From NCBI RefSeq assembly GCF_000027125.1, contig NC_017626.1: DNA of 64,000 nt. One strand, written 5' to 3'. The notes beneath the pieces were generated by a model. The model saw only the letters and a program-made list of their open reading frames with translations. It had not been told where the DNA came from and ran no database searches. Position 1 is the stretch's first letter. Each line of letters opens with the position of its first letter. This DNA comes from Escherichia coli 042. Lineage in GTDB: Bacteria > Pseudomonadota > Gammaproteobacteria > Enterobacterales > Enterobacteriaceae. The position numbers and the translations under genes are program-made. Below are positions 39,326-39,613 of this stretch, piece by piece.

Positions 39326-39613
39326 TTAACGGATCAACATCCAGATCAGCAGACACGCCACCACCGGCACAGCAAAATCCATCAGGCTTGCCACATCCCA
39401 CGCGCGCGGATCAAAACCGCCCCACCACGGCATATTCATTCGCTTGCCATGCCCGAACATTTCAATCCAGCGATATTCTGCCTGGGTGTGTTCACGCGCA
39501 ATGAAGAACGTACAACCGGCTATCGCCCCGTAAACCCAGTTTCCGGTAAAAAGACCAATCATTACCTGCGCAGCCACAGCACAAAGCGCATGAAGAAAAG
39601 GTGTTATATCCAT
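39326..39613 (-). CDS. small hydrophobic membrane protein of unknown function (prophage cargo next to att)
   Basis: 95-aa ORF with about three predicted transmembrane helices and a Trp-rich loop (MPWWGGFDPRAW); no family I recognise; first gene inside the prophage end. Confidence 0.5.
   Translation of the reverse strand: MDITPFLHALCAVAAQVMIGLFTGNWVYGAIAGCTFFIAREHTQAEYRWIEMFGHGKRMNMPWWGGFDPRAWDVASLMDFAVPVVACLLIWMLIR

Follow-up and report, generated by a model that had tools for sequence, protein, structure and literature searches.

Several phages carry genes for small envelope proteins beside the genes for their receptor-binding proteins. The lipoproteins Llp and Cor reside in the outer membrane, block a single receptor, FhuA, and vary with FhuA. 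GtrABC of P22 and SfV, Oac of Sf6, and the polymerase inhibitors of epsilon15 and D3 are small membrane proteins that alter the receptor glycan, and their genes lie next to the attachment (att) site or the tailspike gene. We analyzed a stretch of 64,000 nucleotides (nt) from Escherichia coli 042 (contig NC_017626.1), referred to here as the window, that includes one end of a lambdoid prophage. The outermost gene at this prophage end, which belongs to the phrog_1443/Ybl63 family (hereafter the ybl63-family gene; Table 1), is most like these phage genes and is a member of none of their groups.

The gene resembles llp of T5 and cor of phi80, N15, HK022 and the mEp phages in that it encodes a small envelope protein, lies beside a receptor-binding tail gene, and is dispensable for growth. 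T5 Llp is an outer-membrane lipoprotein that blocks the receptor FhuA (PMC9586334). Unlike Llp and Cor, Ybl63 is a polytopic inner-membrane protein with no signal peptide or lipobox. It is conserved whatever the neighboring receptor-binding protein, and it has homologs in capsule loci. Searches of PHROG, Pfam, NCBIfam and PADLOC with the 95-amino-acid (aa) protein gave no homology to Cor or Llp. An earlier note on this DNA, made from the sequence alone, had set aside a Cor-like lipoprotein for want of a lipobox, and we agree. Read directly, the N-terminus (MDITPFLHALC) lacks a basic n-region, and the residue before the Cys, at position -1, is a Leu. We rejected a Cor/Llp-like identity because the lipobox pattern [LVI][ASTVI][GAS]C is absent from the protein.

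Serotype-conversion modules follow the same logic that we propose for Ybl63, but there is no sequence relationship. Neither the 95-aa protein nor any of 54 family members had a Pfam match to GtrA (PF04138) or to an acyltransferase domain, and no gtr-like gene is found among the neighbors of the ybl63-family gene in the window. Serotype-conversion proteins act on O-antigen linked to undecaprenyl phosphate, at known steps, whereas the hint for Ybl63 is toward pathways of the Kdo (3-deoxy-D-manno-oct-2-ulosonic acid) or kps type. Like Ybl63, T4 Imm, P22 SieA and HK97 gp15 are small phage proteins of the inner membrane without which plaques still form. To our knowledge, they are narrow families without bacterial housekeeping homologs. 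PADLOC and PHROG searches, in which Ybl63 was not compared directly with those proteins, gave no similarity to Imm, SieA or gp15. Finally, homologs of Ybl63 lie inside group 2-like capsule loci (KpsS/KpsC, KpsD/E, KpsM/T, KpsF/U), directly after KpsS or KpsD. The family is not among the described kps components, and we know of no such gene in the E. coli kps locus.

The gene is a conserved member of the phrog_1443/Ybl63 family

We found that the 95-aa protein belongs to a widespread family. The earlier note had described a minus-strand open reading frame (ORF) for a small three-helix membrane protein with a Trp-rich loop and no recognizable family. The ORF stands, with an ATG start, and so does the description of its product. 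An AlphaFold2 model built on a 27-sequence alignment (mean predicted local distance difference test score, 92.5) has three helices, at residues 4-23, 26-53 and 74-94, and four Trp residues (W49, W63, W64 and W72) lie in the loop from 49 to 72. The absence of a family did not hold. The phrog_1443 profile matches the protein end to end (residues 1-95 against profile positions 1-95 of 97, E = 7.9e-58), and the only other PHROG match was phrog_34165. E. coli members are named 'Ybl63' in UniProt, and a sequence identical to that in the window is on record as CBG34955.1, 'Prophage protein', from E. coli 042.

At 90% identity the homologs fall into 564 clusters, and at 50% identity into 437. Each homolog is a stand-alone protein of about 90-146 aa. 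The window protein does not differ from phrog_1443/Ybl63 proteins in length, three-helix model or motifs: it carries all of the family motifs (H8, RE-x2-QAEYR-x-I, R58, MPWWGGFD, W72, D79 and P83) on the three-helix scaffold, which in the family comprises approximately 95-110 aa. For such a small membrane protein the conservation is striking. Among 54-103 divergent family members, with identities down to approximately 30%, no variation was seen at R40, E41 and W72, while conservation reached at least 90% at H8, Q44, A45, E46, R58 and P83. The conserved residues fall in the motifs G-R-E-x-x-Q-A-E-Y-R-W-I and M-P-W-W-G-G-F-D-x-R-x-W.

The family is common in E. coli. It was present in 35% (1905/5426) of complete genomes. 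Carriers had a median of two copies and a maximum of seven, and these copies were always annotated as 'hypothetical'. The ORF was intact in 82 sampled copies, which represent 59 nucleotide alleles, and the median dN/dS over 51 E. coli alleles was 0.24. Because of this selection and the large number of homologous clusters, the ORF is beyond chance; it is a real gene under purifying selection.

No function is attached to the family in the sources that we searched. Pfam had no match for the 95-aa protein or for 54 family members, and NCBIfam and PADLOC had none for the 95-aa protein. A sequence search of the PDB gave chance matches only (E > 0.2), and fold searches returned only the family itself or generic helical bundles. 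A literature search found no paper naming 'Ybl63' or the motif strings, and nothing relevant on small membrane proteins in kps or rkp loci or downstream of receptor-binding proteins. The profile and structure-prediction searches that the earlier note had proposed gave a match to phrog_1443 and none that explains the chemistry of the protein. Judged by its sequence, the gene is a member of phrog_1443/Ybl63 only, a family without assigned function.

Phage members are linked to receptor-binding genes

The earlier note had viewed the gene as cargo placed at the att site. We found instead that it is packed into the tail-fiber gene cluster. It is co-directional with the tail-fiber genes, and the TAA stop codon of the upstream fiber gene, a Peptidase_S74 gene, is at 39624-39626, leaving a tight gap of 10 nt to the ATG of the ybl63-family gene, which is preceded by AGGAGG. 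A consensus scan of the minus strand from 38800 to 40700, which a weak or non-sigma-70 promoter could escape, found no sigma-70-like promoter. A promoter of its own, a mark of morons, is thus not seen for this gene. In lambda, Q-antiterminated late transcription passes through the tail and side-fiber genes. Because of the orientation, the short gap, the AGGAGG and the lack of an own sigma-70-like promoter, the simplest reading, by analogy with lambda, would be that the ybl63-family gene is the last cistron of the late tail-fiber transcript and is expressed by read-through. The earlier note had found the expression of the gene unclear from sequence; lambda biology supplies this reading, and extra expression in the lysogen is possible.

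The same neighborhood is found in other E. coli prophages, in which the 234-aa S74 fiber gene is the usual upstream partner. At 80 E. coli loci from IMG/VR, the upstream gene encoded an S74 fiber of 227-234 aa in 54 cases. In 22 of the 80 it was a second cassette of approximately 300-346 aa with a C-terminal motif that we read as S74-like, and in one it encoded a 712-aa protein that we read as a P22-type tailspike. The two cassettes are alternatives to each other in these prophages (loci L006-L085) and have approximately their first 31 residues in common. Their sequences suggest that they could be exchangeable tips on a shared attachment site.

Phages that lack the S74 partner also have the gene beside tail genes. 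In phage 21 the order is stf, a 93-aa gene and the ybl63-family gene, with no S74 fiber gene upstream. Beyond the family gene, on the opposite strand, a sitABCD block (5386-8835 of locus L002) separates it from att. This block encodes a complete iron/manganese ATP-binding cassette (ABC) transporter and is true cargo, at the position that the earlier note had imagined for the ybl63-family gene. In PhiR47_1, dinI and int lie between the family gene and the genome end. In prophages of Comamonas, Acidovorax and Pantoea, gpJ lies upstream of the family gene, together with fiber-like genes at most loci, and an endolysin-like gene lies a few hundred nt downstream at 6 of 8 loci.

Tail-gene adjacency also occurs where att is not nearby: in an Aeromonas phage that is P22-like, in a jumbo phage, in dozens of environmental phages and, with the family gene reduced to a pseudogene, in a virulent coliphage. 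Aeromonas phage 4_4512, which has P22-like head and DNA-transfer genes, encodes an 87-aa homolog after a 698-aa fiber-like protein, amid head-tail genes. In the Aeromonas jumbo phage ACP1 (236 kb), the family gene is immediately before the tailspike gene. Virulent coliphage 6947, like three similar records, has the family gene after the tailspike gene, but frameshifted and without the REHTQAEYR core (4960-5200 of locus L005). A 42-aa remnant of the gene is annotated in phage anhysbys. Since the gene is a frameshifted pseudogene in coliphage 6947 and its relatives, it is dispensable for lytic growth, and it decays in strictly lytic phages.

Viral contigs were scanned with an alphaproteobacterial-type member, which gave 68 environmental loci, and with an Aeromonas-phage-type protein, which gave one extra locus only; from the two scans together, 66 loci were evaluable. 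The nearest upstream large ORF (at least 200 aa, within 700 nt) was a PHROG tail fiber, tailspike or tail protein at no fewer than 39 of the 66 loci, a lower bound because of crude ORF calling. The upstream types included beta-helix spikes, S74 fibers, phrog_1171 spikes and phrog_5939 tail proteins, and in some of these phages the family gene lies between tailspike and head-tail adaptor genes. An apparent fusion of a tail fiber with the membrane domain at one locus (L160) was rejected as an ORF-calling artifact from an overlapping frame. We conclude that the linkage of the family is to receptor-binding tail genes and not to att.

Chromosomal homologs lie in capsule loci

We found that many bacterial copies of the gene lie among capsule genes. 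One genome per species was scanned, and 80 loci were returned. Approximately 55 of the matches were alphaproteobacterial, mostly from Sphingomonadales, with others from Aureimonas and Devosia. In approximately 27 of these ~55 species, the gene is within a few kb of genes for KpsS, a KpsD/Wza-type exporter, KdsA, KpsF/KdsD or KdsB/KpsU, and NCBIfam confirmed the Kps and Kds assignments. On the same strand, it often follows the gene for KpsS (9 loci) or KpsD (7 loci) by 8-100 nt.

A Novosphingobium locus (L238) illustrates the arrangement. According to precomputed Pfam assignments, obtained in an independent look-up, it encodes KpsF, KpsU, a phosphatase, KpsC, a family 4 glycosyltransferase (GT4), a fatty-acid hydroxylase, a sulfatase-type protein and KpsS, followed by the family protein, a GT4, KpsD, KpsE, KpsM, KpsT and epimerases. 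This is a complete ABC-transporter-dependent capsule locus. The homologs in capsule loci retain the same invariant residues as the phage copies, and the molecular activity of the two should therefore be the same.

Other frequent neighbors in Alphaproteobacteria were genes for a PhyH-family dioxygenase, an RkpI-like phosphoglycerol transferase homolog, a short-chain dehydrogenase/reductase and a UDP-sugar dehydrogenase. The most constant immediate neighbor in Sphingomonadales, even where KpsS is not close, was the PhyH-family protein, a 343-aa Fe(II)/2-oxoglutarate dioxygenase (loci L114-L116, L123, L124, L131, L136, L138, L149-L151, L153, L154, L159 and L163). It may be a functional partner of the family protein.

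The gamma- and betaproteobacterial matches were either prophage-borne or at conserved chromosomal sites. In four Aeromonas species (L091, L092, L095 and L098) the order is polB, pirin, the family gene, a RIO1-like kinase gene and two lpxL/lpxM paralogs. This non-phage copy is near two genes of the type that encodes Kdo2-lipid IVA acyltransferases. It could be a second Kdo-lipid-related neighborhood, and coincidence is possible. In Leclercia the family gene is between a LysR regulator gene and urea transport genes.

The conserved residues are predicted to meet at the cytoplasmic membrane interface

We counted Lys and Arg residues in 103 members. The mean number per sequence was 5.96 in the conserved loop, against 0.57 at the N-terminus, 0.61 at the C-terminus and 0.09 in the turn between transmembrane helices 1 and 2. 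The positive-inside rule would place both the N-terminus and the 40-residue conserved loop on the cytoplasmic side. Helix 2 has a hydrophobic part of only approximately 14 residues. For this reason R40, E41 and Q44, together with H8 at the start of helix 1 and D79 at the start of helix 3, should lie at or just inside the inner-leaflet interface. In group 2 capsule synthesis, KpsS and KpsC add Kdo to phosphatidylglycerol at the cytoplasmic, inner-leaflet face of the membrane.

A possible role in the assembly of lipid-linked surface glycans

The bacterial copies are repeatedly co-located and co-oriented with genes for priming of the capsule lipid and for export, and the phage copies are repeatedly joined to genes for proteins that recognize surface polysaccharides and often degrade them. 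Based on these results we suggest, as a tentative preference, that the family protein is an inner-membrane accessory protein or small enzyme of lipid-linked surface-glycan assembly, with which phages alter the receptor glycan. The near-invariant polar cluster (H8, R40/E41, Q44, E46, R58, W72 and D79) would sit at one membrane interface, on the cytoplasmic side, and would bind or act on something common to many proteobacteria. The protein might work in the capsule route that is primed with Kdo or phosphatidylglycerol and depends on an ABC transporter, or in a related glycolipid step on the inner leaflet. Having captured the gene, phages would have kept it as the last gene of the receptor-binding (tail fiber or tailspike) module. 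In the 042 prophage, the protein would probably be made from the late tail-fiber transcript. It would then change or deplete the surface glycan that tail fibers and spikes recognize. The expected outcome is poorer adsorption of incoming phages or of released progeny, and hence superinfection exclusion or less loss of progeny on cell debris. A role of the protein in exclusion or conversion is plausible.

Several observations weigh against this proposal. The annotators of phage 21 obtained two transmembrane domains with TMHMM, with N- and C-termini inside and the loop in the periplasm, which conflicts with our positive-inside result. Other alphaproteobacterial copies are in housekeeping contexts, for example in the order mgtE, peptidyl-prolyl isomerase, family gene, gltX, nadE, so that the link to capsule loci, although strong, does not hold everywhere. 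The ~27 kps-linked species are related and do not represent 27 independent events; the presence of several different kps arrangements argues for maintained linkage. The gene in the window is itself in a prophage and not in a kps locus, and it is only its homologs that are members of such loci.

A more specific form of the proposal is possible, though we hold it to be rather doubtful. The ybl63-family genes might represent a new class of phage accessory gene, in which a small inner-membrane component of Kdo- or phosphatidylglycerol-primed capsule assembly, captured by tailed phages of widely differing architectures and kept fused to their receptor-binding module, rewires or sabotages the lipid-linked glycan assembly of the host from the cytoplasmic face, and the bacterial homolog would be an undescribed component of ABC-transporter-dependent capsule synthesis. 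The invariant interfacial cluster of Arg, Glu, His and Asp would be the acting part, and the bacterial homolog might, for example, prepare or present the lipid acceptor for KpsS. Phage functions of this type are already known, but no description exists of the protein family, of the range of phage architectures in which it occurs or of its proposed origin in capsule loci.

Alternative functions

The alternative that survives best is an inner-membrane superinfection-exclusion protein in the style of T4 Imm, P22 SieA or HK97 gp15, which would block the entry of DNA or ejection proteins independently of any glycan. The protein is small and in the inner membrane, and its gene is beside receptor-binding genes, where the exclusion genes llp and cor are also known to lie. 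It is dispensable, as the pseudogenes in coliphage 6947 and its relatives show, and many E. coli genomes have several copies, one per lambdoid prophage. Such a function would make it hard to explain the chromosomal homologs with the same motifs in kps operons or housekeeping neighborhoods. The known exclusion proteins are narrow and fast-evolving, whereas this family is conserved over Alpha-, Beta- and Gammaproteobacteria whatever the phage morphotype, and no PADLOC model matches it. We consider an injection blocker unlikely.

We regard it as quite improbable that the protein is a helper in morphogenesis or release of the tail fiber or tailspike that acts in lytic growth only, for example by keeping new fibers off the envelope or by aiding their maturation. 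The packing of the gene behind a fiber gene, in or at the end of a late structural operon, would fit, as would its place between tailspike and head-tail adaptor genes in some environmental phages and its co-occurrence with S74-chaperone fibers in E. coli. Chromosomal copies with no phage genes nearby do not fit, nor do the pseudogenes in viable virulent phages isolated on E. coli hosts. Phage 21 carries the gene without an upstream S74 fiber gene, and a membrane protein would be an unusual partner for fiber folding in the cytoplasm.

A function in lysis, as a holin, antiholin or lysis regulator, is less probable still. Class I holins have a similar size (~95 aa) and three transmembrane helices. 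They also have a charged cytoplasmic C-terminal tail, and their genes are beside those for endolysin and spanin. The window protein ends in WMLIR, with one charge and thus no charged tail, and holins do not have a near-invariant polar loop of 40 residues. The S-R-Rz cassette of lambdoid phages is found upstream of the head genes. The ybl63-family gene is at the tail-fiber end, and no lysis gene adjoins it in the window or in phage 21. One family member gave a weak match to Phage_holin_8 (E = 3.6e-3), and the endolysin-like genes of the Comamonas, Acidovorax and Pantoea prophages, and of some environmental phages, are 150-450 nt downstream of the family gene. The copies in kps operons speak against lysis, and we rejected a holin as the primary interpretation because of these homologs and the lack of adjoining lysis genes here and in phage 21.

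It is hardly credible that the ORF is a hitch-hiking or decaying one without function in the 042 prophage: some phages retain only a pseudogene remnant, so that it is dispensable, the module boundary is prone to recombination, and the GC content differs from that of the neighbors (0.52 against 0.43-0.46), yet the ORF is intact across the sampled alleles with a low dN/dS, its polar motif is near-invariant across phyla, and its ribosome-binding site is strong. The remaining probability belongs to functions outside our preferred explanation and these four alternatives.

Organization of the prophage end

The features of this region are listed in Table 1. The earlier note had placed the gene outermost in the prophage, next to att. 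This was correct: the gene is 352 bp from a tRNA-Ser att fragment. Prophage-free E. coli genomes align to the window only up to 38973, inside the annotated tRNA-Ser, and the chromosome beside att carries the E. coli genes hiuH-msrP-msrQ-zinT. ARAGORN found no complete tRNA anywhere in the 64-kb window. Because of this, we take the tRNA-Ser fragment to be the att copy left at one prophage end, and the other end, with the intact tRNA and probably int, is beyond 64000.

The gene order in the prophage is gpJ, lom, the 801-aa side tail fiber, the 93-aa protein, the 234-aa fiber protein and the ybl63-family ORF. Phage 21 and other prophages likewise keep the 93-aa gene between stf and the gene for the membrane protein; the 93-aa product may be a fiber chaperone. 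The 234-aa fiber protein has no obvious receptor-binding domain. Within stf, in the Ala/Ser/Thr-rich 'SETNAK' repeat region, there is an out-of-frame minus-strand ORF for 222 aa rich in Arg, Gln and Lys (42058-42726), which is almost certainly an artifact of the repeats. The GC content of the ybl63-family ORF (0.52) compares with 0.43-0.46 for the three upstream fiber genes and 0.37 for the spacer to att (38974-39325). This contrast is consistent with a separately acquired module.

Table 1. Features at the att end of the 042 prophage (positions within the window)
Feature	Coordinates	Strand	Description
tRNA-Ser fragment	38911..38973	minus	3' 63 nt of the tRNA; att core at the prophage/chromosome junction; prophage starts at 38974
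Hairpin	39283..39328	.	starts right after the stop codon of the ybl63-family gene; stem 39283-39292 / 39309-39318, 10 bp, 16-nt loop
ybl63-family gene (phrog_1443)	39326..39613	minus	95-aa three-helix inner-membrane protein; ATG start
Motifs of the 95-aa protein			H8, R40-E41-x2-Q44-A45-E46-Y47-R48-x-I50, R58, M61-P-W-W-G-G-F-D68, W72, D79, P83
Shine-Dalgarno sequence AGGAGG	39618..39623	minus	4 nt before the ATG
Short tail fiber, 234 aa	39624..40328	minus	N-terminal adaptor, coiled coil and Peptidase_S74 intramolecular chaperone
93-aa protein (phrog_1361)	40338..40619	minus	function not assigned; between stf and the S74 fiber gene; 4-nt overlap with the stf stop
Stf-like side tail fiber, 801 aa	40616..43021	minus	starts the receptor-binding module that ends with the ybl63-family gene

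Downstream of its stop codon, the ybl63-family gene has a stable hairpin. The calculated free energy of the hairpin is -19.1 kcal/mol as plus-strand RNA (z-score -2.6) and -23.2 kcal/mol as minus-strand RNA (z-score -3.1). The earlier note had read the hairpin and an adjoining T-run (approximately 39285-39322) as a terminator for the plus strand only. We found the T-run on the plus strand only as well, so that the strand of the gene has no U-tract. A canonical intrinsic terminator for the ybl63-family gene was rejected: a pattern scan did not accept the hairpin as one on either strand, as the 16-nt loop exceeds 8 nt. The hairpin may act as a weak stop for late transcripts. Because of the plus-strand T-run, it may be a proper intrinsic terminator for transcripts that arrive from the att side. 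In the circular, excised phage such transcripts would reach the hairpin from the integrase side, through attP, and the position and orientation of the hairpin would then resemble those of the lambda tI/sib element.

The hairpin accompanies the gene in many E. coli prophages that diverge further downstream. In one allele the stem carries a compensatory change, from GCCGCAGT/ACTGCGGC to TCCGCAGT/ACTGCGGA. Since it travels with the gene and its pairing is kept in this way, the hairpin is part of the module.

Significance

Approximately one third of complete E. coli genomes carry the ybl63 family, and they often have several copies of it. The family is highly conserved, and no study has yet been devoted to it. 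Its members are small and easily expressed and have clear invariant residues, and the hypothesis is therefore directly testable. If the protein is an injection blocker instead, few exclusion genes of E. coli prophages would be more widespread than its gene. If our preferred explanation, an action on lipid-linked surface glycans, is true, the family would represent a new and very common route by which phages manipulate the surface glycans that set phage host range. This would bear on phage therapy against capsulated extraintestinal pathogenic E. coli, Aeromonas and other bacteria. The family would also supply a candidate for a component of ABC-transporter-dependent capsule synthesis that is so far undescribed.

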